From an uncultured Bacteroidales bacterium (GTDB lineage: Bacteria; Bacteroidota; Bacteroidia; Bacteroidales; UBA932), in assembly GCA_900319855.1 (NCBI GenBank), contig ONQC01000010.1:689-64688 (forward strand): 64,000 bases of DNA, in the 5' to 3' direction. The notes under the pieces were generated by a model. It had not been told where the DNA came from. It worked only from the letters and a program-made list of their open reading frames with translations, and ran no database searches. Made by a program: the position numbers and the translations under genes. Shown piece after piece: positions 2,426 through 38,914 of the stretch (its first letter is position 1; the number at the start of each line of letters is the position of its first letter).

Positions 2426-3103
2426 TCAGTCCTTCGAAGGGATGAAGCGTGCGATCGCGCCGGCGAGGTTGCTCAGCGGCATGGTCTGCATCCAAACGCG
2501 GCCGGGGCCGGTGACCTTCGTATTGAAGAGGCCCTCACCGCCGAGGAGCATGTTGCCGATGCCCTTGACGGTCTGGATGTCGATGGAGCAGGTGGCGTCC
2601 ATCGCTGCGAGGTTGCCGGTGTCCACGAGCATGGACTGGCCGGCCTGGAGCTCATAGCTGATGAGGCTGCCGTCGATCTCGAGCAGGAGCGTGCCGGTGC
2701 CGGAGAAGCGCTGCATGATGAAGCCCTCACCGCCGAAGAAACCGGCGCCGAGCTTCTTCTGGAAGAACATCTCGAAGCTGACGGACGGCGAGGAGGCCAG
2801 GAACGCAGACTTCTGCGCCACGATGTCGCGGCCGGGGGCCATCTCGATCTCCATGATCTCACCGGGAACGGTCGAGGCGAAGGCGATCATGCCGGGGCCG
2901 CCCTTGGCGGTGTAGGTGTTCTGGAACATGGAATCGCCGCTGAGGGCACGGCCGAGCATCTTGCCGATGCCGCCGCCCTTGGTCTGCATCTCCATGTTAG
3001 AGGACATCCACGTCATCGCACCGCGCTGGCAGACGACGCTCTCGCCGGCCTCCAGGTTCATGATGGCTACTGGATAGGGTTTGCCTTGGATCTCGTAATT
3101 CAT
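2426..3103 (-). CDS. TIGR00266 / AIM24 family protein
   Basis: GAMTWMS, AQKSAFLA, GGEGFIMQ and GGEGLFNT..GPGRVWMQTMP are typical of the family. AGGAGG Shine-Dalgarno upstream (complement of cctcct at ~3112-3117). Confidence 0.88.
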   Translation of the reverse strand: MNYEIQGKPYPVAIMNLEAGESVVCQRGAMTWMSSNMEMQTKGGGIGKMLGRALSGDSMFQNTYTAKGGPGMIAFASTVPGEIMEIEMAPGRDIVAQKSAFLASSPSVSFEMFFQKKLGAGFFGGEGFIMQRFSGTGTLLLEIDGSLISYELQAGQSMLVDTGNLAAMDATCSIDIQTVKGIGNMLLGGEGLFNTKVTGPGRVWMQTMPLSNLAGAIARFIPSKD

Positions 3104-3357: not shown

Positions 3358-3530
3358 TCATCGGCGATGGGGTCGAAGTCGATTTCCGGCTTGGTGATGT
3401 GCAGCAGGGACTTCTCTCCGGCCATGGCCTTGGCCTCGGCGGAGTTGAGGACGTCATACGGAGGTGCCGCGACCTCGGTCACGATGTTCTTCGGGGGACG
3501 GACGGCGGCAAAGGGTTTTACGCGTACCAT
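3358..3530 (-). CDS. DUF1015 family protein, 5' fragment only (~58 aa), cut at the junction
   Basis: VKPFAAVRPP..VAAPPYDVLNS.EA...SLLHITKPEIDF is the DUF1015 N-terminus; it follows serC-serA as in Bacteroidetes. Confidence 0.8.
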
Positions 3531-9560: not shown

Positions 9561-10373
9561 TTATTTCTTCTCCTCTTCGACGACGGGTTCGACGAACGGA
9601 TGGACCTCGGTCATCTCCACTTCAAAGGTGAGCGGAGTGTTCGGCTCGATGCCGCGGTTGCCGTTCTCGCCATAAGCGAGCTTGGACGGGATAACGAGGT
9701 TGATCTTGCCACCTTCGCCGATGAGCTGCAGGCCTTCGGTCCAGCCGGCGATGACCTGGTTCAGGCGCATGGAGATCGGGTCGGCGCCTTCCGGAGTCTC
9801 ATCGAACACGCTGCCATCCGGCAGGGTGCCTTTGTAACGGACGAGGACGGTATCCTGCGGACCCGGCTTGACATCGTTACCGGCCTCGACGATCTGATAT
9901 TGCAGGCCGCTTTCGGTCTCGGTGAAGCCCTTGCCCAGGTTCTTGGCGAGGAATTCCTTCTCCTTCTGGATGTTGAGGGTGGCGACATAGTCCTGGCGCT
10001 TGGCGAGGTACTCGTTGAAGATGCGGGTCATCTCGTTGGGATCGATCTTGAACTGCTTGACGAATTCCGGATCCTGCTGGTTGCCCTTGGCGTTGACGAA
10101 GTCGTCCATGCCGCGCTTCATCTGGGAGTAGTTGATGTCATCGCCGAAGTTGTAACCCTTCAGGAAGCTGCCGAAGTTGATGCCGAGCAGGTAGCTGACG
10201 GAATCGATCTCAGCCTTGGACGGGAGATAGTCTTTCGGGTTGGTGGATTTGACGGTCTGGGCGACTCCGAGGGAGTCGGTCTGGGCACCGGCGGAAGCGT
10301 TGCCGCCTTTCTGCCCGCATGCGACAGTCATGGCAAGTACCATGGCCGCTGCGAAGAATTTGGTTGTCTTCAT
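9561..10373 (-). CDS. FKBP-type peptidyl-prolyl cis-trans isomerase, lipoprotein (Mip/FkpA-like)
   Basis: Lipobox TVAC; DSVSYLLG dimerization domain; SGLQY, YKGTLPDG.VFD, VIAGWTEGLQL, IPSKLAYG. Confidence 0.92.
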   Translation of the reverse strand: MKTTKFFAAAMVLAMTVACGQKGGNASAGAQTDSLGVAQTVKSTNPKDYLPSKAEIDSVSYLLGINFGSFLKGYNFGDDINYSQMKRGMDDFVNAKGNQQDPEFVKQFKIDPNEMTRIFNEYLAKRQDYVATLNIQKEKEFLAKNLGKGFTETESGLQYQIVEAGNDVKPGPQDTVLVRYKGTLPDGSVFDETPEGADPISMRLNQVIAGWTEGLQLIGEGGKINLVIPSKLAYGENGNRGIEPNTPLTFEVEMTEVHPFVEPVVEEEKK

Positions 10374-28253: not shown

Positions 28254-29399
28254 TTATACGTAATCCTTGACATCCTGCGCGGAGATGACCGGCCCGCCGA
28301 GGATGAGGAGGCGCTCGACGACGTTGCGGAGCTCGCGGATGTTGCCGGGCCATTCGCGCTGTTGCAGCAGGGTGATGGCTTCAGGATCGAACGGCCGGAC
28401 ACTCTTTCCGCTCTCGGCGCAGATCTGTTCTGTGAAGTAATTGACCAACAGGGGGATGTCGTCCTTTCGCTCATCCAGCGAGGGGACGCGGACGATGATG
28501 ACGGAGAGGCGGTGATAGAGGTCTTCGCGGAAGGTGCCTTTCTCGATTTCTGCCTTGAGGTTCTTGTTGGTCGCGGCTACGACGCGCACGTTGACTTCGA
28601 TGTCCTTGTCGCCGCCGACCGGGGTCAGTTTCTTTTCCTGGAGGACGCGGAGCACCTTGGCCTGGGCGGCCAGGGACATGTCTCCGATTTCGTCGAGGAA
28701 GAGGGTGCCGCCGTCGGCCTGCTCGAATTTGCCCTTGTGGTCCTTGACCGCGGAGGTGAAAGAGCCTTTCTTATGGCCGAAGAGCTCGCTTTCAATGAGT
28801 TCGGACGGGATGGCGGCGCAGTTGACCTCGATGTAGGGCATGGCGCTGCGCTGGCTCTGCTGGTGCAGGCTGCGGGCGACCAGTTCCTTGCCGGAGCCGT
28901 TGGGACCGGTGATCAGGACACGGGCGTCGGTCGGGGCGACCTTCCCGATGATGTCGCGGATATGCTGGATCGGCTCGGACTCGCCGATCATCTGCTGGCC
29001 ATAGACTTTCTTCTTGAGGATCTTGTTCTCCTTGGCGAGGTTGGCCTTGTCGGTGGCGTTCTTGATGGTGATGAGGATGCGGTTGAGGTCGAGGGGTTTT
29101 TCGATGAAGTCGAAGGCGCCCTTGTGCATGCATTCCACGGCCGTGGCGATGTCGGCGTGGCCGGAAATCATGACGACCGGGGTCTCGATGCCTTCTTCGA
29201 CCAGCTTGACCAGGACTTCGGTGCCCTCCATCCCGGGCATCTTGATGTCGCAGAAAATCACGTCATACCGTTCTTTCCCGGCCAGTTCCAGACCCTTGGG
29301 GCCGTCTTCGGCCACATCGACCGTATATCCTTCATCCATCAGGATTTCTTTCAGTGAATTGCGGATGGCGCGCTCGTCATCGACTACCAGAATCTTCAT
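28254..29399 (-). CDS. NtrC/NtrX-family response regulator (receiver + sigma54-activator AAA+ domain), no C-terminal HTH
   Basis: MKILVVDDE..CDIKMP receiver; GPNGSGKE, NCAAIP..LIESELFGH, GSFTSA, LFLDEIG, FREDLYHRL, WPGNIRELRNVVERL; ends 16 aa later. Start set at ATG 29399. Confidence 0.92.
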   Translation of the reverse strand: MKILVVDDERAIRNSLKEILMDEGYTVDVAEDGPKGLELAGKERYDVIFCDIKMPGMEGTEVLVKLVEEGIETPVVMISGHADIATAVECMHKGAFDFIEKPLDLNRILITIKNATDKANLAKENKILKKKVYGQQMIGESEPIQHIRDIIGKVAPTDARVLITGPNGSGKELVARSLHQQSQRSAMPYIEVNCAAIPSELIESELFGHKKGSFTSAVKDHKGKFEQADGGTLFLDEIGDMSLAAQAKVLRVLQEKKLTPVGGDKDIEVNVRVVAATNKNLKAEIEKGTFREDLYHRLSVIIVRVPSLDERKDDIPLLVNYFTEQICAESGKSVRPFDPEAITLLQQREWPGNIRELRNVVERLLILGGPVISAQDVKDYV

Positions 29400-29494
29400 A
29401 TGTATCAATCTCTTTACCTGGCGGCTTTCCTGCCGCCGGTCCTTATTCTTACGCAAATATCGGATAAAAATCGCGGACTTTGCACAAATTTTCC

Positions 29495-29502: not shown

Positions 29503-29521
29503 CTTCCTAACAAGCAAATCC

Positions 29522-30211
29522 ATGCAAGTTCCTGATATCATCATCGCCATCGACGGCTTTTCCGCTACCGGAAAAAGCACCCTCGCCAAACTGATTGCAG
29601 AGACGTTTTCCTTCCTGTACCTGGATTCCGGCGCCCTGTACCGCGGGGTGACCCTGTTTGCCCAGGAGAACGGTTACATCGACCCGGACAACACCATCCA
29701 CGAAGCGGAGCTGAAGGCTGCGCTGGATGCGGGTCTGGACCTGCATTTCGGCCTGGACGGCACCTATATCGGCGACCGGCGGATCGAGAAAGAGATCCGG
29801 ACCATGGAGGTCTCCGGCCAGGTGAGCCCGATCGCGGCCGTGCCGTTCGTCCGCGCGTTCGTGGACGGCAAATTGCATGAAGCCGGGGCGAAAGGGCGCG
29901 TGGTGATGGATGGCCGGGATATCGGTACGGCCGTCTTCCCGAACGCCGAGGTGAAGATTTTCGTGACGGCCCGCGACGAGGTCCGGGCCCAGCGGCGCTA
30001 TGACGAGCTGAAGGCGAAGGGGGAGAATCCCGACCTGCAGGAGGTGATGAAGAACCTCGCGGAGCGGGATTACATCGATTCCCACCGGGAGACCAACCCG
30101 CTGCGGCGGGCGGAGGATGCCTATGTGATGGACAACTCCGAGATGACCCTCCATGAGGAGATCGTCTGGACCCAGGGTCTGCTCCAGGGACGTTTCCGCA
30201 TCCTGGAATAA
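29522..30211 (+). CDS. cmk: (d)CMP kinase
   Basis: IAIDGFSATGKST, YLDSGALYR, MDGRDIGTAVFP, RAQRRY, ERDYIDS.R..NPL. Confidence 0.94.
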   Translation: MQVPDIIIAIDGFSATGKSTLAKLIAETFSFLYLDSGALYRGVTLFAQENGYIDPDNTIHEAELKAALDAGLDLHFGLDGTYIGDRRIEKEIRTMEVSGQVSPIAAVPFVRAFVDGKLHEAGAKGRVVMDGRDIGTAVFPNAEVKIFVTARDEVRAQRRYDELKAKGENPDLQEVMKNLAERDYIDSHRETNPLRRAEDAYVMDNSEMTLHEEIVWTQGLLQGRFRILE

Positions 30212-30212
30212 C

Positions 30213-31088
30213 ATGCATTTACAAGTCGAAATCGACGCCCATTCGGGTTTTTGCGGCGGGGTCATCCGGGCCATCGGCCAGGCGGAGGACTATCTGGCCG
30301 CCCATCCCGGAGAGCAGTTGCTGTCCCTGGGATCGATCGTCCACAATGAAGCCGAACTGGAACGCCTGCACGGCAAGGGCCTGCGGACGATTACTTCTTT
30401 GGACGGCCTGTCCGGCGGGTCGGTCCTGATCCGGGCCCATGGCGAGCCGCCGCGCACCTATGCCCAGGCCGCAGAGCAGGGAATCGAATTGATTGACTGT
30501 ACCTGCCCGGTGGTGCTGCAGCTGCAGCGCCGGATCCGGGAAGCGTATACGCGGATGCAGGAGGCTGGGGGACAGGTTGTTATCTTTGGAAAAGTGGGAC
30601 ATGCCGAGGTGCTGGGTCTGGTTGGTCAGGTCGGCGGGGACGCCCTGGTGGTAGAGAACATGTCCATGCTTTCCGAGGCCGTCGACCGCGGGCTTGTCCA
30701 TCCGGACGGACCGGTCGAGGTGTTTTCCCAGACGACGAAGAGCCCTTCGGAATATGCCGCGATCTGTGCGGCGCTGCGTTCTTTCGTGCGGGGGGAGGTT
30801 ACCGTACATGACACCATCTGCAAACAGGTGTCTTCGCGGCATGCCCAGCTGACGGCCTTTGCCCGTTCGCATGATGTGATCATCTTCGTGTCGGGGCGGG
30901 AGAGTTCCAACGGGAAGGTCCTGTACGGGCTGTGCAAAGGGGTGAATGAACGTTCCCACCAGGTGGGCTCCGCGGCGGAGGTGGATCCTTCATGGCTGCG
31001 GGACGGAGACCGGGTCGGGGTCTGCGGGGCGACGAGCACGCCGAAATGGCTGCTGGAGGCGGTCGCGCAGAAAATTTTGCATGTGTAG
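30213..31088 (+). CDS. ispH: 4-hydroxy-3-methylbut-2-enyl diphosphate reductase
   Basis: GFCGGV, GSIVHN, IRAHG, DCTCPVV, GHAEV, SQTT, DTICKQV, SSN, GATSTP. ATG 30213 follows the cmk stop. Confidence 0.94.
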   Translation: MHLQVEIDAHSGFCGGVIRAIGQAEDYLAAHPGEQLLSLGSIVHNEAELERLHGKGLRTITSLDGLSGGSVLIRAHGEPPRTYAQAAEQGIELIDCTCPVVLQLQRRIREAYTRMQEAGGQVVIFGKVGHAEVLGLVGQVGGDALVVENMSMLSEAVDRGLVHPDGPVEVFSQTTKSPSEYAAICAALRSFVRGEVTVHDTICKQVSSRHAQLTAFARSHDVIIFVSGRESSNGKVLYGLCKGVNERSHQVGSAAEVDPSWLRDGDRVGVCGATSTPKWLLEAVAQKILHV

Positions 31089-31142: not shown

Positions 31143-31715
31143 ATGGCAACAACTGCAGATTTCAAGAACGGGCTCTATCTGAATTTCAACGGCAAGCCGT
31201 GCTCCATCGTATGGTTCCAGCATGTCAAGCCGGGTAAAGGTCCCGCTTTCGTAAAGACCAAGCTCCGCAACCTGGAGAACGGCCGCATCCTCGAGAATAC
31301 CTTCACCGCCGGTGCCAAGATCGAGACCATCAATGTCGAACATCGTGGTTATCAGTTCCTTTATGCCGATGAAGAAGGTTTCAACTTCATGAACGAAGAC
31401 AACTACGAGCAGATCTCCCTCCCGAAGGACCTCGTCGAGAACGCCGACCTCATGAAGGAAGGCCAGCACGTCGAGATGATCTTCGTGACCGAGCCGGAAG
31501 AGCGCTGCCTCACCTGCGAGCTCCCGACCTACGTGACCCTTCAGGTTACCTATGCCGAGCCTGCCGTCAAGGGCAACACCGCCTCTACCTCCGCCCTCAA
31601 GGAAGTCGAGCTCGAGACCGGTGCCAAGATCATGGTCCCGCTCTTCATCAACACCGACGACATCATCACCGTCAACACCACCGACCGCAGCTACGGTCAG
31701 CGCGTCAACGGTTAA
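31143..31715 (+). CDS. efp: Elongation factor P
   Basis: HVKPGKGPAFV.TKL, FMNE.NYEQ, EPAVKGNTA, LETGA.I.VPLFI. Confidence 0.96.
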   Translation: MATTADFKNGLYLNFNGKPCSIVWFQHVKPGKGPAFVKTKLRNLENGRILENTFTAGAKIETINVEHRGYQFLYADEEGFNFMNEDNYEQISLPKDLVENADLMKEGQHVEMIFVTEPEERCLTCELPTYVTLQVTYAEPAVKGNTASTSALKEVELETGAKIMVPLFINTDDIITVNTTDRSYGQRVNG

Positions 31716-32073: not shown

Positions 32074-32166
32074 CTATGTCCGAACATGTCGCCAGCGCTG
32101 CCTCGGGAATGCAGAAGCCCGATTTTGTTCCCGGGGGTCAATGTGAGGCGGAATTGCAACGAGCGA

Positions 32167-32265
32167 GCGGCGCAGGTGTGTTTTTTTCTGCGACACCTGC
32201 GCCGCAAAACAGTATTCTGCGCGCTGAAGCGTCGCAGGTACAACACTCTTTTGCACACCTGCGTC
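32167..32265. repeat. Twin REP-like hairpins sharing CGCAGGT...ACCTGCG arms
   Basis: gcggcgcaggtgt-13nt-acacctgcgccgc (32167-32205) and cgcaggt...acctgcg (32233-32263), with related flanks. Confidence 0.7.
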
Positions 32266-32718
32266 GGGCAACGCCCGGCGGGCGAGCCGGGCCGCTGGGC
32301 CCGAGCCCGGCGAAGCCTGCCGGAGCGTAGCCGCCGCGTCTCGTGGTCGCGCGGCGGCGGTGCAGCAATAAATAATGTCGCGAAAATGTACTATCATCGC
32401 GACATCAATGACAACCGATATCAGGACTTCTTCGTCCTATCTAACTATTGTTCAATATCGGTAAACTTTTTTCAGGACTAGACATTACGACACATTTGGT
32501 AAGAAATGTAATGCGCTAAGGTTCAATGAATTCCGTACTTGTCATGTCGTCAGAATACAACAGGGAGGACGGATAAATGATTGGCTAACAGGGTTTTGCA
32601 TTTTCTGACAATTCCTCTTCGGCCTGTCCTGTGCCGGCTGATGTCACGGGCAAACTTCGGAACGGGCGCGATGCCATTCGTAAAAGGGAGCTTGAAAAGA
32701 TATTGCGCAAAGAATTCT

Positions 32719-32726
32719 TATCTTTG
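32719..32726 (+). promoter_or_regulatory. Bacteroidetes -7 box (TATCTTTG) for the GH43 gene
   Basis: Exact TAnnTTTG 18 nt before ATG 32745; argues against the listed GTG start at 32631. Confidence 0.6.
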
Positions 32727-32744
32727 GGTGATGATAAAGTGACG

Positions 32745-34121
32745 ATGCCCATGTCTCGTATTTCTTCGATTGCCGGCCTGCTGGTTTCCGCGGTCCTTGC
32801 GCCTGCGATCTTTGCCGGCTGTCCGGCGAAAGCCCAGAACCCCATTTCGCCGATGGGGGTGTACATCGCTGACCCGACCGCCCGGGTCGACCGTGACGGG
32901 AAGCTCTATGTCTATGGTTCCCTCGACACCGAGCCGGGAAGTTATTGCTCAAAGGATTACCATGTCCTCTCAAGCAGTGATGCAAAGACCTGGACCCTGC
33001 ATCCGAACCGGTTCTCCTGGAGTGAAACGCTGTACGCCCCGGACCTGATCCGAAAGGGCGACACGTACTATCTGTACTTCGATATCCCGAACGGCGATGA
33101 ATTCGTCGCGGAAGGGAAGGCCCCGACCGGTCCGTTCGGGGATGCCGCGAAAATCGAAGGCCCGAAGCAGATCGACCCGAACATCTTCATCGACGATGAC
33201 GGACAGGCGTATTATTTCTGGGGACAGTTCTCCGGAAAAGGCGCCAAAATGAATCCGGACATGAAAACCCTGGACCTGAACACGATGGTGGATGGTCTCG
33301 TGACGGAGAAGGACCACTTTTTCCATGAGGGGAGTTTTGTCTTCAAGCGCGGGAAATACTATTATTATTTGTATGCGGACATCAGCCGGAACCATCGTCC
33401 CACGAGTCTGGGTTATGCCATGGCGACTTCGCCGCTCGGCCCCTACGTGTACAAGGGCGTGATCATCGACAATGCCGGCTGCGACCCGGAGACCTGGAAC
33501 AACCACGGGTCGATCGTCGAATACAAGGGACAGTGGTACATCTTCTATCACCGCTCCACCCATGCCAGCCGGGCGATGCGAAAGGCTTGCCTCGAGCCCA
33601 TCACCTTCAACGAAGACGGAACGATCGACGAAGTAGAGATGACCTCGCAGGGGGCCGGTGGGCCGCTGGATGCCAACCAGGAAATCGATGCGGCGCGGGC
33701 CTGCCTGCTGCAAGGCCATGCAAGGATTCAGCGCAATGATGAAGAAACAGGCCTCGCCAGGCGGGAGAGAGAAGTGCTGACCGGCATCCGGGACGGGGAT
33801 GCGGCGGCATGGAAGTATCTGGATTTCAGAAAGGGTGCAAAGAAGATCGAGCTCAAGGTAAAACCGGCGGCAGGCGGCGTGATTCGGGTCCGGACCGGAG
33901 CACCCGACGGCCCGGTTCTCGGAACGGTCCGGATCCCTGCTTCCGTGTCTTCTCCGGGACAAAAAGGGGCAAAAGTCGCAGCGGTACCGGAATGGAAAAA
34001 GGTTTCGGCCCGGATCCGGAAAACCAGAGGCGTCCAAGCTCTCTGGCTGACCTTCGAGTCTGGCGGTGATACGCCGACAGAAGAAGACCTTTTCCTCCTC
34101 GATTCCTTCCGGTTCCGGTAA
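32745..34121 (+). CDS. Secreted GH43 glycoside hydrolase (xylosidase/arabinofuranosidase type) with C-terminal CBM6-like domain
   Basis: Signal peptide; IADP (base), QIDP (pKa modulator), FHEG (acid), NNHGSIVEYKGQWYIFYH; CBM6-like WKYLDF..G..IRVR.GAPDGPVLG..LTF..D.FRF. Confidence 0.9.
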   Translation: MPMSRISSIAGLLVSAVLAPAIFAGCPAKAQNPISPMGVYIADPTARVDRDGKLYVYGSLDTEPGSYCSKDYHVLSSSDAKTWTLHPNRFSWSETLYAPDLIRKGDTYYLYFDIPNGDEFVAEGKAPTGPFGDAAKIEGPKQIDPNIFIDDDGQAYYFWGQFSGKGAKMNPDMKTLDLNTMVDGLVTEKDHFFHEGSFVFKRGKYYYYLYADISRNHRPTSLGYAMATSPLGPYVYKGVIIDNAGCDPETWNNHGSIVEYKGQWYIFYHRSTHASRAMRKACLEPITFNEDGTIDEVEMTSQGAGGPLDANQEIDAARACLLQGHARIQRNDEETGLARREREVLTGIRDGDAAAWKYLDFRKGAKKIELKVKPAAGGVIRVRTGAPDGPVLGTVRIPASVSSPGQKGAKVAAVPEWKKVSARIRKTRGVQALWLTFESGGDTPTEEDLFLLDSFRFR

Positions 34122-34178: not shown

Positions 34179-34242
34179 TCCGGAGATAAACAGGGAAGTA
34201 TCCGGAGATAAACAGGGAAATATCCAGAGAAATAAACACGGG
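34179..34242. repeat. 22-nt tandem repeat (2 near-perfect copies + degenerate third), purine-rich on +
   Basis: tccggagataaacagggaagta / tccggagataaacagggaaata / tccagagaaataaacacggg. Confidence 0.8.
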
Positions 34243-34280: not shown

Positions 34281-34318
34281 AAAAAAGACGGCTTTCCGGA
34301 AGGAAGGTCGCCTTTTTT
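34281..34318. terminator. Bidirectional intrinsic terminator (GH43 on +, candidate sRNA on -)
   Basis: aaaaaa-gacggctttcc-ggaa-ggaaggtcgcc-tttttt. 10/11 pairs on + (2 GU), 9/11 on - (1 GU). Confidence 0.7.
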
Positions 34319-34350
34319 GAACCCTATTATTATCAACTAAACTAACCGAC
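34281..34350 (-). ncRNA. Candidate sigma54-dependent small RNA (~65-70 nt)
   Basis: Lies between a perfect sigma54 promoter and a terminator; no ATG. Predicted sequence GUCGGUUAGUUUAGUUGAUAAUAAUAGGGUUCAAAAAAGGCGACCUUCCUUCCGGAAAGCCGUCUUUUUU. Confidence 0.6.
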
Positions 34351-34359
34351 AAAACAAAT

Positions 34360-34375
34360 TGCAAGTCGCGTGCCA
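34360..34375 (-). promoter_or_regulatory. sigma54 (RpoN) -24/-12 promoter
   Basis: Minus strand TGGCACG-CGAC-TTGCA is an exact match to TGGCACG-N4-TTGCW with GG-N10-GC spacing, in an intergenic position. Confidence 0.8.
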
Positions 34376-34393
34376 AACTTTACGTGTGGGCAC

Positions 34394-34416
34394 AAAAAAA
34401 CCGACTCATCAGTCGG
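34394..34416 (-). terminator. Intrinsic terminator overlapping the DUF4783 stop codon
   Basis: Minus strand ccgact-gatg-agtcgg followed by ttttttt. Confidence 0.7.
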
Positions 34417-34819
34417 ATTTTGCAATTTTCAGCTGCTGGATCTTGTAGCTTTGGTCCTTGATGCTGACGAAGATCGTTACTTCGAAGACCTCTCCGCCGG
34501 CCTTCAGGCGGCCGAGCGCGTATTTCATGTTGCTCCGTCCGGCGGTATGTTCGATGTTGAAGGTGCTCGGCGTGTAAGATTCGAAGAAGGAGCGTACGAT
34601 TTGTTTGGCCTGGTTCCGGCTGGAGTCGTTGGTGTTGGAGAAAACGGTAACTTCCAGATTTTCAGCGAACCAGGCGGAAAGTTTGTCTGCATCGCCGAGC
34701 CGGATGTATTTGGCGATCGGAATGAAGACATCATAGTTGTCCGTCGGCGCCTGGGCACGGGCCGAAACGCCGAGACACAAAGCCAAGGCGGATGCAATGA
34801 CGAGGGGCAGATGCTTCAT
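34409..34819 (-). CDS. DUF4783 domain secreted protein
   Basis: Signal peptide; I.K.I..GDA.KLS.WF..NLE, SRNQAKQI..SFF, F.I.H pattern; typical neighbour of rlmH in Bacteroidetes. Confidence 0.8.
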   Translation of the reverse strand: MKHLPLVIASALALCLGVSARAQAPTDNYDVFIPIAKYIRLGDADKLSAWFAENLEVTVFSNTNDSSRNQAKQIVRSFFESYTPSTFNIEHTAGRSNMKYALGRLKAGGEVFEVTIFVSIKDQSYKIQQLKIAKSD

Positions 34820-34879
34820 TACAAACCTTTACAATAGAATATAGCTACCGCCTTTATTGCAAATTCCGAGCCATCTTGG

Positions 34880-34887
34880 TAAATTTG
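34880..34887 (+). promoter_or_regulatory. Bacteroidetes -7 box (TAAATTTG), 6 nt before the rlmH ATG
   Basis: Exact TAnnTTTG. Confidence 0.55.
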
Positions 34888-34893
34888 CGGCAG

Positions 34894-35367
34894 ATGAAGA
34901 TCACTTTGCTCACTGTCGGCAAGACGGATGTGCGCTGGGTGCGCGAAGGCCTCGACCTCTATGTATCGAGGCTGAAGCATTATGTTCCTTTCGTACTGAA
35001 TGAGATTCCCGAGCTGAAGAATGTCTCCGCCCTTTCCCAGGACCAGATCAAGGAACGCGAAGGCGACCTGGTGCTGGCCGCCCTCAAACCGGGCGATGAG
35101 GTCTATCTGCTCGACGAACACGGGAAACAGTACCGCTCGGTCGATTTCGCCCGTTTCCTGCAGGACCGCATGAGTCGCAGCGGACGGGACCTGGTCTTCG
35201 TCATCGGCGGGGCCTATGGCTTTGCGAAGAAAGTCTATGACCGGGCCGAAGGGAAGGTTTCCCTTTCCGAGATGACGTTCTCCCATCAGATGGTGAGAAC
35301 GATTTTTGCAGAACAGCTCTACCGGGCCTTTACCATTATCAAGGGAGAACCTTATCATCATGAATAA
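34894..35367 (+). CDS. rlmH: 23S rRNA (pseudouridine1915-N3)-methyltransferase
   Basis: MKITLLTVGKT, LLDEHGK, FVIGGAYG, SLSEMTFSHQMVR.IFAEQLYRA..I.KGEPYHHE. Confidence 0.95.
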   Translation: MKITLLTVGKTDVRWVREGLDLYVSRLKHYVPFVLNEIPELKNVSALSQDQIKEREGDLVLAALKPGDEVYLLDEHGKQYRSVDFARFLQDRMSRSGRDLVFVIGGAYGFAKKVYDRAEGKVSLSEMTFSHQMVRTIFAEQLYRAFTIIKGEPYHHE

Positions 35368-38300
35368 GATCCGGGAAAATATGATCCGCCGCTATGCCTG
35401 GATTGTGCTGCTGCTCGCCGCCATCGTGCTCGTGGGCGTGTCGCTCTATGCGCGGCGGGGGACCGACTACACGGAGACGGCCGCCCGGAAAATCTCTGAA
35501 GTGATTGCCCGGCGGATGGCTGTCCTGGACACCTACACGGCACGCGCCCTGGCGCAGCCGCATGACCAATGGATGGACCTGGAAGGGTTGCCGGAGGACA
35601 TGGTCGTCTACCGGTATGTCGCTGATTCCCTGCAGTCCTGGTGCCATCAGTTTACCGTCGACAACGACGATATCAGCGCGCGGATGGTGATCCAGCGGTT
35701 CCCGGACCTGCGGTACAACCTCGTGTCGCCGCTCTCGCAGGTCGATACGCTGGTCAGCCTGCAGAACATCGGTCCGAAATGGTACCTGACCTACAGCCGG
35801 ACCGGTGATGACGGCTGCCGGGTCATTGCCGGCCTCGAAGTTAAAAATACCATGGACGGGTCTTCGGTCAACGGGGTCAATCCCCGGCTGAAACTCTCCG
35901 ACCATTTCTCCCTGTATCCCATCAGCTGGAGCGGCGGGGCCGCCGTCTCCGTACAGGGCCGGCCCTTGCTCAAGGTCATCCAGGAAAATGCCCGGTCCAA
36001 CCCGCGCCTGCCGGACGCCACCTCCCTGTGGCTCTCCGTCCTGCTGCTCGTGGGAGCGGCGCTGCTCTTCCTGAACTACCACAAGAGCCTGCGGAACATG
36101 TTGCTGGTCGTGACCGGCCTGACGCTGCTGATGGGTGCCTTCTACTGGCTCGGCCGCAGCCTCGGGACGATTTCCGACCTCTTCTCTCCGACCATCTATG
36201 CCGACGGTCCGCTGCTGTATTCACTGGGCGCCGTGCTGATCATCAACCTGAATATCGTCCTGGTCATCTGCTGTATCTATACGGTGCGGTTCCAGCTGCT
36301 CCGCCGGATGTTCTCCCGGCCGTCCAGCCGCTCCTCCGCCGTCCTGGTGCTGGGACTGATGCTCATCGGCCTGCTGGTCTACATCCACCTTTCTTTCCGC
36401 AGTGTCCTGATCAATTCCAACATTACGCTGGAACTATACAAGATCGACACCCTGAGCGGCTATACCGCCGCGGTCTACGCCTCCTGGCTGTCGCTGCTGC
36501 TGATGATCCCGGTCCTGCTGCAGATGATGCGGCCGATGCTGCGCCACCGTTTCGGCATCCGTTACAATGTCTTCTCCCGGACTTTCCGGACCGTTTTCGC
36601 GATCTTCTGCGCCGTCTACATGGTCAGCGTGTCCTCCCTGCTGGGGTTCCGCCGGGAGCGCAGCCGGGTCGAAATCTGGGCCAACCGACTGGCCATCGAC
36701 CGGGACCTGGCCTTTGAAATCCAGCTTCGCAGCGTCGAAAACGCCATTGCCGATGATCCGCTGATCGCGACGCTGATCTCCGGCGGCCTGGACTACCGGA
36801 TCATCCTGAACCGCATCTCCGAAAACTATCTCGGCCGGGCCGCGCAGGACTATGACATCTCCCTGTACATGTTCCGGGGCTCGCAGCCGGATGCCTATGT
36901 CCTGTCCTACTACAACGAGATCCTCCGTTCCGGAGTCCACATCTCCGGCGATTCACGCTTCCTCTACTCCCAGACCGCCAACGGCCGGCCCCGCTATACG
37001 GGTGTCTTCTCCTATTATTCACCTTCGGATGGATTGACAACCCTGCTGCTAGGCATCCAGTCCAAGGCGGAGAAAGAGGGGAGGGGCTATGCCGCCCTGG
37101 TGGACAATTCCGCATCCGGTCCGGTAGTCCTGCCGCCCCGGTACTCCTACGCGAAGTACCTGAACGAGAAACTGGTATCCTACCGTGGAGACTACGCCTA
37201 CCCGACCACGCTGTCCGGCCGTCTGCTCGAGGCGGACCGCGAGGGAGAGGCTTTCCTCATCCTGGACCGCTATGTGCATTTCTTGTCCCCGGTCTCGGAA
37301 GATGAATTCATCGTCATCTCGCGGGTCAACGAAGACTTCACCATGTACATGGTCGCCGGTTTCGTGGTCGCCCTTCTGGCTTTCTTCGTGCTGAGCCTCC
37401 TTTCGCTGGGCAACCGGCGCAAGGGCGCCTTCGAGAAGAACTACTACAAGTCCCGGATGAACACGGTCCTGTTCCTGTCCCTGATCGCGACCCTGGTCGT
37501 CCTGGCCCTGATCAGCGTGCTGTTCGTATACCGGCGCAACGAGGCCAACATCATGAACCTCATGACCTCGAAGGTCGGTACCGTCCAGGCCCTCGTCCAG
37601 GCGGACGCCCGTTATTTCCAGTCCATCAACGACTTTGATACCCAGGAATCGGTCCGCCGCCTGAGCGATATCAGCGACTACACCAAATCCGACATTACCC
37701 TTTATACGACCGCCGGCCGTTTCCACCGGTCCACCAGCCCCGAAGTGTTCGAACGGATGCTGGTCGGCACCCGCACCAACGAAGACGCCTACCGCAGCAT
37801 CATCTACGAGAATCTCCGCTACTACATCCACAAAGAGCGGCTGGGCCGCCGGAGTTTTTATATGCTGTATGCGCCCGTGATCAATGATGACGGCCGCCTG
37901 CTGGCCATCCTGGGTGCTCCGTATACCGATACCGGGATGGAGTTCCGCGACGAGGCGGTCTTCCACGCCATCTTCGTCATCACGGCCTTCCTGATCCTGC
38001 TGATCCTGACCCGCTGGGTCACCACCCGCCAGGTCGACAAGATGTTCCGTCCGCTCATCGACATGGGCAAGAAGATGGTCTCCGCCCGTACCGGCGGCCT
38101 CGAATATATCATCTACGACCGCGAAGACGAAATCTCATCGCTGGTGCGTGCCTACAACCTGATGGTCCACGACCTGTCCGAAAGTAGCAAGCAGGCCGCC
38201 CAGTTCGAGCGTGACAAGGCCTGGAGCGAAATGGCCCGCCAGGTTGCCCACGAAATCAAGAACCCGCTGACGCCGATTAAATTGCAGATCCAGCGCATCA

Positions 38301-38914
38301 TCCGCCTGAAGAACCGCGGCGATGCCGACTGGGGCGAGAAATTCGAGCAGATGGCCCCGGTCATCCTTGACAGCATCGACGGCCTGACCGATACCGCCAA
38401 CGAATTCTCCACCTTCGCCAAGCTCTACAGCGAGGCCCCGGTCGAGATTGACCTGGACCGCCTGGCCGCCGATGAGATCGCCCTCTTCGACGACAAGGAG
38501 CACATCTCCTTCCAGTACATCGGCCTCCAGGGCGCGAAGGTCATGGGCCCGAAACCCCAGCTCACCCGCGTCTTCGTCAACCTGCTGACCAACGCCGTCC
38601 AGGCGATCGAGAATCAGCAGAAAGAAGACGCCGAAGCCGGCCGCGCGCCGAAGCCGGGGCGGATCAACCTCAGCCTGCGCAACTCCGTGCGCGAAGGCTT
38701 CTATGACATTGTGTTTGAGGATAATGGCCCCGGCGTCAACGATGACAACCGTGGCCGGCTCTTCACCCCGAACTTCACCACCAAGAGCAGCGGCACGGGC
38801 CTGGGCCTGGCCATCTGCAAGAACATCCTCGAGCGCTGCGGCGGCGATATCGCCTACAGCCGCTCCTTCACCCTCGGCGGCGCCTGCTTCACCGTCCGTT
38901 TCCCGAAACGGTAA
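35360..38914 (+). CDS. Large multi-TM sensor histidine kinase, NtrY-like (HAMP-HisKA-HATPase)
   Basis: DEISSLVRAYN.M (HAMP), WSEMARQVAHEIKNPLTPI (H box), NLLTNAVQA, DNGPG, FTPNFTTK, GTGLGL. Many TM segments. Start overlaps the rlmH stop. Confidence 0.92.
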   Translation: MNKIRENMIRRYAWIVLLLAAIVLVGVSLYARRGTDYTETAARKISEVIARRMAVLDTYTARALAQPHDQWMDLEGLPEDMVVYRYVADSLQSWCHQFTVDNDDISARMVIQRFPDLRYNLVSPLSQVDTLVSLQNIGPKWYLTYSRTGDDGCRVIAGLEVKNTMDGSSVNGVNPRLKLSDHFSLYPISWSGGAAVSVQGRPLLKVIQENARSNPRLPDATSLWLSVLLLVGAALLFLNYHKSLRNMLLVVTGLTLLMGAFYWLGRSLGTISDLFSPTIYADGPLLYSLGAVLIINLNIVLVICCIYTVRFQLLRRMFSRPSSRSSAVLVLGLMLIGLLVYIHLSFRSVLINSNITLELYKIDTLSGYTAAVYASWLSLLLMIPVLLQMMRPMLRHRFGIRYNVFSRTFRTVFAIFCAVYMVSVSSLLGFRRERSRVEIWANRLAIDRDLAFEIQLRSVENAIADDPLIATLISGGLDYRIILNRISENYLGRAAQDYDISLYMFRGSQPDAYVLSYYNEILRSGVHISGDSRFLYSQTANGRPRYTGVFSYYSPSDGLTTLLLGIQSKAEKEGRGYAALVDNSASGPVVLPPRYSYAKYLNEKLVSYRGDYAYPTTLSGRLLEADREGEAFLILDRYVHFLSPVSEDEFIVISRVNEDFTMYMVAGFVVALLAFFVLSLLSLGNRRKGAFEKNYYKSRMNTVLFLSLIATLVVLALISVLFVYRRNEANIMNLMTSKVGTVQALVQADARYFQSINDFDTQESVRRLSDISDYTKSDITLYTTAGRFHRSTSPEVFERMLVGTRTNEDAYRSIIYENLRYYIHKERLGRRSFYMLYAPVINDDGRLLAILGAPYTDTGMEFRDEAVFHAIFVITAFLILLILTRWVTTRQVDKMFRPLIDMGKKMVSARTGGLEYIIYDREDEISSLVRAYNLMVHDLSESSKQAAQFERDKAWSEMARQVAHEIKNPLTPIKLQIQRIIRLKNRGDADWGEKFEQMAPVILDSIDGLTDTANEFSTFAKLYSEAPVEIDLDRLAADEIALFDDKEHISFQYIGLQGAKVMGPKPQLTRVFVNLLTNAVQAIENQQKEDAEAGRAPKPGRINLSLRNSVREGFYDIVFEDNGPGVNDDNRGRLFTPNFTTKSSGTGLGLAICKNILERCGGDIAYSRSFTLGGACFTVRFPKR

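Follow-up and report, generated by a model that had tools for sequence, protein, structure and literature searches.

What can a promoter of the sigma-54 class be driving when no gene follows it? The question is raised by a 64,000-nucleotide (nt) stretch of contig ONQC01000010.1 from an uncultured Bacteroidales bacterium (hereafter the window, meaning this whole 64-kb stretch), in which an earlier note had proposed a sigma-54-driven small RNA (sRNA) behind a gene of the DUF4783 family. The element itself is a predicted sRNA of about 67-70 nt on the minus strand (34347-34281), the length being the sum of a 28-nt block and a terminator. One window alone is unable to exclude chance, and comparison with other loci does so; on the basis of that comparison, we are highly confident that the sRNA is a real, conserved RNA gene. 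The explanation that we favour, with rather more confidence than doubt, is an independent sRNA gene that would be driven by sigma-54, switched by an activator and equipped with a 5′ end acting in trans.

The proposed promoter, TGGCACG-N4-TTGCA, is present without a mismatch at 34375-34360 on the minus strand (TGGCACGCGACTTGCA), and its extended part (34360-34377) reads TTTGGCACGCGACTTGCA. The -24 GG is located at 34374-34373 and the -12 GC at 34362-34361, and the features that define the sigma-54 class (GG at -24, GC at -12 and the exact spacing between them) were all found. The exact form TGGCAC-N5-TTGC (34375-34361) occurs a single time in the 64 kb, where about 0.12 occurrences are expected (2 x 64000 / 4^10); when one mismatch is allowed, the motif is found at chance frequency (6 occurrences, 4.0 expected). 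Transcription is predicted to start at about 34349 +/- 2 (zone 34346-34350), 12 nt after the -12 C at 34361.

The promoter is followed, after 13 variable nt, by the 28-nt block GGTTAGTTTAGTTGATAATAATAGGGTT (= GGUUAGUUUAGUUGAUAAUAAUAGGGUU) at 34347-34320 on the minus strand. The block begins at or beside the predicted +1, since TTGC and GTTAGT are 14-16 nt apart in 40 loci from related genomes. It corresponds to the unstructured stretch with UUAGUU repeats that the earlier note had described, and, in keeping with the lack of a start codon stated there, it contains neither AUG nor GUG. Behind it lies a hairpin (34281-34318, minus strand) with a core stem at 34310-34289, an A-tract/U-tract extension and a run of six U at 34286-34281, again as described. 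The surroundings agree with the first description as well. The DUF4783 gene (34819-34409, minus strand; Pfam E 8.4e-25) ends within its own short terminator (34416-34394), its TGA at 34411-34409 lying inside the loop of a 6-bp hairpin (34416-34401) that is followed by seven T. Furthermore, about 5 kb separate the promoter from the first real minus-strand gene on its 3′ side, which starts at 29402 and encodes a sigma-54 activator.

The evidence that carries the case for an RNA gene is comparative. A genome scan with a DUF4783 alignment yielded 80 loci, one per species (Cryptobacteroides/Bacteroidales), and in 40 of them the same unit stands directly after DUF4783: a promoter of the form TGGCAY-N5-TTGC (in a few cases with TTGT or TTGA), a variable stretch of 13-15 nt, GGTTAGTTTAGTTGWTAATAATAGGGTT or a sequence close to it, and a hairpin. 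The neighbouring DUF4783 proteins are 57-89% identical, those flanking the unit in these loci 59-89%, while the 28-mer is essentially invariant, and its constraint is thus stronger than that of the adjacent protein. Most copies of the block, whose consensus is GGUUAGUUUAGUUGWUAAUAAUAGGGUU, are identical or differ by one change (A/U at position 15, G/U at position 24). A second scan, of metagenomes, used the 20-nt core alone (GTTAGTTTAGTTGNTAATAAT) and returned at least 120 loci; counts out of 120 are given here among the matches listed. In 109 of these 120 loci, TGGCAY-N5-TTGC (with at most one mismatch) stands directly 5′ of the core, typically 14-17 nt away. The other 11 are also without the GGGTT extension and the hairpin, and they look like chance hits that serve as internal controls. 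With an nhmmer profile, about 150 true copies were recognised among the fetched loci (the metagenome part being the matches listed), and the copy in the window scored E 2.6e-14. The search that the earlier note had suggested, for promoter plus UUAGUU repeats in intergenic regions, gave in Bacteroidales the result predicted there, and the unit of promoter, exposed 5′ segment and terminator with nothing else to drive recurs in about 150 loci and in at least two unrelated contexts.

The second of these contexts separates the sRNA from DUF4783. DUF4783 lies near the sRNA in no more than 32 of the 120 metagenome loci, and about 77 copies among the matches listed are not beside it. In the longer contigs examined, copies that are not linked to DUF4783 stand behind engB-prs-der in the same orientation, or they have convergent xth or ogt-like genes opposite them. 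Because these roughly 77 copies occur in a different context, the sRNA is an autonomous gene and not an appendage of DUF4783. The Der protein of one such contig is closest to Cryptobacteroides, Bacteroidales or Rikenellaceae proteins, which places the der-linked copies in the same lineage, at a second genomic site; the named matches of flanking proteins are likewise all from Cryptobacteroides, Bacteroidales or Rikenellaceae metagenome-assembled genomes (MAGs). The genes 3′ of the sRNA differ among loci and are mostly convergent, which leaves the promoter with no other gene to drive. On two contigs, the sRNA occurs twice, with both copies on the same strand and about 2.8 kb apart (L083, ~168-235 and 2951-3017; L118, ~651-718 and 3415-3482). 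In the second copy of each pair, the block is a variant (AAUGAUAGGG) that is preceded by a sigma-54 promoter of its own; the pairs look like sibling sRNAs.

Some smaller observations on the distribution can be added. Divergent members of the family in four loci (L069, L153, L166 and L197) are without the GGGUU end of the block. A mobile or viral origin was rejected, as 2.9 million viral contigs gave two chance matches and no promoter. In one contig (L122, 4889-5752, plus strand), a 287-aa open reading frame (ORF) lies 3′ of a der-linked sRNA; it has no Pfam domain and shows a weak, below-cut-off similarity to REP-associated tyrosine transposases (E 1.8e-5).

The terminator provides evidence of a different kind, namely of selection on the RNA itself. 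Relative to shuffles, the minimum free energy (MFE) z-score of the 60-nt segment that follows the block averages -5.35 over 130 unique copies and lies below -2 in 99% of them. The stem sequences differ among lineages, and a hairpin is present in every relative. When the two strands of the same 60 nt were compared, the RNA strand folded better in 103 copies and the opposite strand in 25 (Wilcoxon p = 1e-13), with 305 G-U pairs on the RNA strand and 59 on the other. Covariation was tested on an 11-bp hand-specified helix in a 26-sequence in-register subset. The helix pairs in 91.6% of cells, compared with 69.2 +/- 1.9 in shuffles (0 of 500 reach the observed value) and with 31-47% after sliding of the partner column. 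Changes on both sides are seen in 8 of the 11 pairs, and the covariation score is 0.61 versus 0.19 in shuffles and at most 0.21 in slid controls. A crude pairwise tally of compensatory changes was noisy and mildly supportive. RNAalifold predicted no pairs on MAFFT alignments, because hairpins of unequal length put their 3′ arms out of alignment with one another. These comparisons show that the terminator is selected as RNA on the sRNA strand.

In the window, the hairpin is bidirectional, as it also stands behind a convergent plus-strand GH43 gene, and it reaches -15.8 kcal/mol on the minus strand and -20.6 to -24.3 kcal/mol on the plus strand (z = -4.6 at -24.3). The earlier note had warned that the hairpin is weaker on the minus strand. 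This caveat holds for the copy in the window and for its nearest relative (L001), which are the exceptions with a stronger plus-strand stem, but not for the family, given the 103 of 130 copies just described.

The folds of single copies suggest a simple molecule. Four representative copies fold with the first 27-33 nt from the predicted +1 unpaired, in both MFE and centroid structures, followed by a single terminator hairpin; a fifth, divergent copy (L074) shows a weak extra 5′ stem in the MFE fold that is absent from the centroid. As modelled, the layout of the sRNA would be minimal, a 5′ working end plus a terminator. Of the features by which trans-acting, base-pairing sRNAs are recognised, those of layout were found: an own promoter and an intrinsic terminator, no conserved ORF, independence from flanking genes, and a conserved single-stranded seed in the form of a near-invariant 28-mer that is unpaired in the predicted folds.

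The promoter is conserved together with the block. In aligned loci, information content peaks at the extended promoter positions TTTGGCAC...TTTGCAA; the N5 spacer, the interval between promoter and block and the whole range from -160 to -3 carry almost none. Just eight additional promoter matches exist in the 1.4 Mb of related loci, and six of these eight are sRNA copies with a longer spacer. Thus, the pattern of conservation makes it likely, in our judgement, that the sRNA depends on sigma-54. No conserved position or 7-mer of an upstream enhancer was detected between -160 and -3 in 64 copies not linked to DUF4783. Another good sigma-54 promoter (TTCTGGCACACGACTTGCAA) was noticed in one related locus (L080, 7468, plus strand), 32 nt 5′ of a lipoprotein-like gene (MKKFTYILGLGLAVLAVSSCG...), which is possibly a protein-coding member of the same regulon.

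Sigma-54 requires an activator, and a candidate is available in the window. The gene at 28254-29402 (minus strand) encodes an NtrC-family activator with a receiver domain (Pfam Response_reg, E 3.9e-32), a sigma-54 AAA+ domain (Pfam Sigma54_activat, E 2e-70) and a lid, and with no match to HTH_8. The protein ends about 15 residues past the AAA+ lid, and its alignment covers positions 1 to ~378 of the NtrX, NtrC, AtoC and ZraR profiles, whose lengths are 441-463; it therefore is an activator without the DNA-binding helix-turn-helix. The FlgR activator of Campylobacter and Helicobacter, for comparison, is able to function without contacting DNA. The lack of a conserved upstream motif fits, without proving, activation from solution by an activator that has no DNA-binding domain. 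The role of this AAA+ enhancer-binding protein as the cognate activator of the sRNA promoter is putative. Its sigma-54 contact loop reads GSFTSA instead of the canonical GAFTGA, and the protein is 70-94% identical across relatives and more conserved than the kinase described next.

The sensor histidine kinase (35306-38914, plus strand; 1202 aa; HisKA and HATPase_c in Pfam) has about 10 hydrophobic segments with two large loops between them, and its start overlaps the end of rlmH. Upstream of HisKA, there is only a faint sCache match, and the kinase core is nearest to LIC_11548-type kinases, AtoS and ZraS (NCBIfam), all below cut-off. Synteny of rlmH, the kinase gene and DUF4783 is kept in 77 of the 80 genome loci. 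Among the 17 loci that reach past the 3′ end of the kinase gene, the activator is directly adjacent in 10 and somewhere in the locus in 13. On this gene order, control of the sRNA by the neighbouring kinase and activator is a tentative proposal, plausible and still somewhat doubtful. The presence of the activator in the window implies an rpoN gene in the genome, and the C-terminus of an RpoN box (ARRTIAKYR) was found in a related MAG locus (L010). The earlier note had tied its proposal to rpoN and to the conservation of promoter and seed in relatives; with rpoN in this relative, a sigma-54 activator in the window and both elements conserved in the genome and metagenome loci, none of the observations that it named as refuting was made.

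The mechanism that we propose can be set out as follows. RNA polymerase with sigma-54 would bind TGGCAC-N5-TTGC and remain closed until an ATP-hydrolysing activator opens the promoter. The likeliest activator would be the neighbouring NtrC-type response regulator without a DNA-binding domain, phosphorylated by the adjacent multi-pass membrane histidine kinase. The transcript would begin at or next to the GG of the block consensus and end at the intrinsic terminator. The invariant unpaired 5′ segment would be its working part, most likely pairing in trans with A/C-rich mRNA regions, for example the Shine-Dalgarno-less translation start regions of Bacteroidota, with their translation or stability altered as a result.

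Several observations weigh against the reading of an independent, sigma-54-driven sRNA that acts in trans. Six copies (L147, L149, L152, L171, L186 and L194) have a -12-to-block distance of 21-24 nt instead of 13-16 nt, and their RNA would have a short variable 5′ extension. The 67-nt RNA of the window has a z-score of -0.5 against shuffles and a weak hairpin on its own strand. An RpoN box was not found in the 64-kb window. The der-linked copies have neither the activator nor the kinase nearby, and the link to the two-component system is therefore circumstantial. Two divergent copies (L066, 4413-4482; L074, 4440-4506) have insertions within the block, with about three loose UUAGU-like units. 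Expression was read from 12 metatranscriptome runs, as unstranded assembled Logan contigs. Contigs of four runs (X5, X13, X14 and X26; window 34322-34833) proceed from the interior of DUF4783 through its hairpin and seven T into the promoter and the block. Since these contigs include the promoter, they stem from upstream read-through or from DNA, and no start site can be read from them. Finally, a duplex scan of the whole window gave best non-self duplexes of -24 kcal/mol, inside the shuffled-seed range of -21 to -28; complementary 10-mers were not enriched in 1.4 Mb of related loci; and the start region of the kinase gene showed complementarity no better than that of shuffled seeds and no conserved site. 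The target search was confined to 64 kb and 1.4 Mb of flanks, and little weight attaches to its failure.

Two single candidates illustrate the state of the target question. The dksA start, which the earlier note had offered as a related site, was rejected, as its match of 6-7 nt is at chance level. The best lead, and a weak one, would be a gene for an FkpA-like lipoprotein (FKBP_N and FKBP_C; 9561-10373, minus strand), which has 10 nt of perfect complementarity (AUCAACUAAA) at -21 to -12. In six orthologous 5′ untranslated regions (UTRs), 8 nt are kept in two and at most 6 nt in four, including the closest orthologue (83% identical). The match length summed over all seven FkpA-like genes is reached by 1% of shuffled seeds, a figure that is uncorrected for the gene having been chosen on the match in the window. 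Behind the FkpA-like gene comes a DUF3127 gene; on its other side, recQ is transcribed divergently. Overall, we lean slightly towards an sRNA that acts by base pairing in trans.

An unlikely but serious alternative is that the sRNA is real and sigma-54-driven and that it titrates an RNA-binding protein, possibly of the RRM or KH type, through its UUAGU(U/A) repeats. The conserved block has two UUAGU units, and the divergent copies L066 and L074 have about three partly degenerate units at altered spacing (GGUUAGUAUUUAGUAUUAGUU in L074), which suits motif recognition over a fixed seed; the insertions with kept UUAGU-like repeats are explained by a protein-binding motif no less well than by a pairing seed. 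Titration would also account for the lack of an mRNA target in the window and the 1.4 Mb of flanks, although, as noted, the failure of so narrow a search says little. However, the 28 contiguous near-invariant nt, including AAUAAUAGGGUU outside the repeats, are more than a short repeated protein motif needs, and no gene for a candidate protein is linked to the locus.

Less probable still is that the block and hairpin are the 3′ UTR and terminator of DUF4783 or der, that a short RNA arises by processing, and that the promoter is incidental or has another purpose. In 15 of the 40 genome loci, the promoter starts 2-5 nt after the DUF4783 stop, leaving no room for a separate terminator, so that the upstream mRNA must end at the terminator of the sRNA; this 3′-end-embedded layout, with its short gap and shared terminator, is not that of the window or of the der-linked copies. 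The RNA-derived contigs that run continuously from DUF4783 over the promoter into the block also suit a 3′ UTR. Such contigs suggest read-through of the DUF4783 terminator or carry-over of DNA into the libraries. Contigs also end at the conserved block, the point at which species become alike, and the depth peak over the block is as expected from many species collapsed onto shared k-mers. What stands against a mere 3′ UTR is the promoter: its -24 and -12 elements are kept at fixed spacing in 109 of the 120 loci, which were picked independently of it, and it is kept behind two unrelated upstream genes. Moreover, the interval between DUF4783 and the promoter holds a terminator in the window and a 246-nt gap in L001. 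An own promoter together with a shared terminator is a known layout of some 3′-UTR-embedded sRNAs, and the two readings can coexist.

It is very improbable that the transcript is a very small protein gene or the leader of a downstream gene. A TTG at 34336 does open a 202-codon ORF in the window, but this frame runs antisense through the GH43 gene and has a single Pfam match, to PsiB, which does not reach the cut-off (E 0.012); in blocks with the common U variant, moreover, the frame is closed after six codons. ORFs through the sRNA have no credible Pfam support and are not conserved, and a leader is hard to reconcile with 3′ genes that differ among loci and are mostly convergent. As for a chance promoter-like pair beside the bidirectional terminator of convergent genes, with no RNA product, the stronger plus-strand hairpin behind GH43 and the chance frequency of the one-mismatch motif would agree with it, but comparison refutes it with a unit found in ~150 loci and a hairpin that is RNA-strand-selected and covarying, which makes its probability negligible.

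The independent sRNA gene that we prefer can be placed among known regulators. Hfq, ProQ and CsrA are, to our knowledge, absent from Bacteroidota, and cultured Bacteroides are the source of the few sRNAs that have been characterised in the phylum. Among those, GibS, DonS, FopS and MasB are Hfq-independent, and their single-stranded seeds pair with Shine-Dalgarno-less translation starts; they are transcribed from housekeeping promoters of the TAnnTTTG type, whereas the sRNA described here has a sigma-54-type promoter. MicL and DapZ are own-promoter sRNAs embedded at gene 3′ ends, MicL being driven by an alternative stress sigma factor. Many relatives resemble them, in that a gap of 2-5 nt separates the DUF4783 stop from the promoter and one terminator must serve both the sRNA and the mRNA. 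In contrast to MicL and DapZ, the promoter here lies after, not inside, the upstream coding sequence, about half of the copies are in another context, and the sigma class is different.

Sigma-54-dependent sRNAs are known from other bacteria. Qrr1 of Vibrio is sigma-54-dependent (PMC10162802). The Qrr system with LuxO offers a set of parallels: a short RNA, a sigma-54 promoter, an NtrC-type activator, a conserved unpaired pairing region, an intrinsic terminator and the possibility of multiple copies. However, the sRNA described here resembles Qrr in neither sequence nor structure and has no Rfam match, the phylum is another one, Qrr is Hfq-dependent, and LuxO has a DNA-binding domain, which the activator here is without. 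GlmY and GlmZ of Enterobacteriaceae have sigma-54 promoters, and the GlrK/GlrR two-component system is encoded nearby (PMC3045617), a likeness both in the promoter and in the neighbouring two-component genes. On the other hand, GlmY titrates a protein and has a larger, different structure, and GlrR binds upstream sites, whereas no upstream motif is conserved at our loci. In Campylobacter jejuni, CJnc230 (FlmE) is an RpoN-dependent sRNA directly behind a protein-coding gene, in a host without Hfq (PMC11187230). The likeness consists of a sigma-54-class sRNA right behind a coding gene; yet CJnc230 belongs to the flagellar hierarchy, no flagellar context exists here, and the sequences are unrelated.

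Searches of databases and literature agree with the novelty of the element. Rfam 15 gave no match in the window at gathering thresholds, the best permissive hit being L20_leader (18.6 bits versus a gathering threshold of 58.7, E 0.64, terminator-driven), and in four other representative loci it gave nothing at the sRNA. The literature searches, one of them by sequence, turned up no description of this RNA and no sigma-54-dependent Bacteroidota sRNA. By sequence and structure, the element would thus represent a new sRNA family of a known architectural kind that falls in none of the known families. The family is probably sigma-54-dependent and trans-acting, with a putative function.

What the regulated process may be is suggested by other members of the phylum. 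In Flavobacterium psychrophilum, promoters with sigma-54 motifs stand 5′ of chaperone, protease, Skp and gliding genes (PMC9723704), and a comparative study found the same chaperone theme for sigma-54 in Bacteroidota (PMC12316311). As the DUF4783 gene also encodes a signal peptide, an envelope or protein-folding role of the sRNA would be a reasonable guess, no more. The sRNA could be the non-coding arm of a sigma-54 chaperone, protease and envelope response in Bacteroidota (PMC9723704, PMC12316311). In its boldest form, which we advance with more doubt than conviction, the proposal would be that of the first sigma-54-dependent riboregulator of Bacteroidota: the RNA output of a module of kinase and enhancer-independent activator, reprogramming Shine-Dalgarno-less translation (perhaps of envelope or periplasmic-folding genes such as the FkpA-like one) without Hfq or ProQ, in a dominant uncultured lineage of rumen and hindgut.

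Post-transcriptional control in Bacteroidota is poorly charted, and the family presented here was defined by comparison alone, its marks being a fixed promoter of an alternative sigma class, a 28-nt working end that does not vary and some 150 copies of diverse sequence. Its host group is Cryptobacteroides, here from rumen and other gut metagenomes. The names of the closest DUF4783 and Der proteins identify the source of the window as a 'Candidatus Cryptobacteroides' (Bacteroidales) from ruminant gut. The locus suggests a testable circuit that would lead from a sensor kinase to an activator without a DNA-binding domain, to sigma-54 and to the sRNA. The invariant block could serve directly as a probe in Northern blots, pull-downs and searches of metatranscriptomes, and an Rfam family could be built from the alignment.

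The remaining features of the window concern the neighbourhood of the sRNA. Upstream of it on the minus strand, the DUF4783 gene encodes a signal peptide (hydrophobic N-terminus). The plus-strand gene beyond it is rlmH (34876-35367; SPOUT methyltransferase, Pfam SPOUT_MTase E 6.1e-53), followed by the kinase gene. Two minus-strand ORFs (34819-35361 and 29507-30274) were rejected as genes, being shadows of the plus-strand rlmH and cmk by Pfam; because these neighbouring ORFs are shadows, DUF4783 is monocistronic and divergent from rlmH and the kinase. Long shadow ORFs are frequent in this G+C-rich window.

On the other side of the sRNA, the plus strand carries cmk (29522-30211; Pfam, E 1.6e-60), ispH/lytB (30153-31088; Pfam) and efp (31143-31715; Pfam). 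Between efp and the sRNA lie a domain-less 131-aa ORF (32086-32481) and the GH43/CBM6 glycoside hydrolase gene (32631-34121, plus strand; Pfam) that is convergent to the sRNA. GH43 had no tblastn match in any of the 80 related genome loci, and the insertion of GH43/CBM6 at this position looks recent; it may be a reason for the plus-strand-optimised terminator in this window. A tandem direct repeat of 2 x 22 nt (TCCGGAGATAAACAGGGAAGTA, 95% identical) occupies 34179-34222, between the GH43 stop (34121) and the shared terminator. In nine relatives (L006, L008, L011, L013, L023, L024, L029, L035 and L054), cmk comes directly after DUF4783 on the same strand, with no sRNA. In these same relatives, the cmk-ispH-efp block is inverted with respect to the window, and the breakpoint coincides with the position of the sRNA in other genomes.

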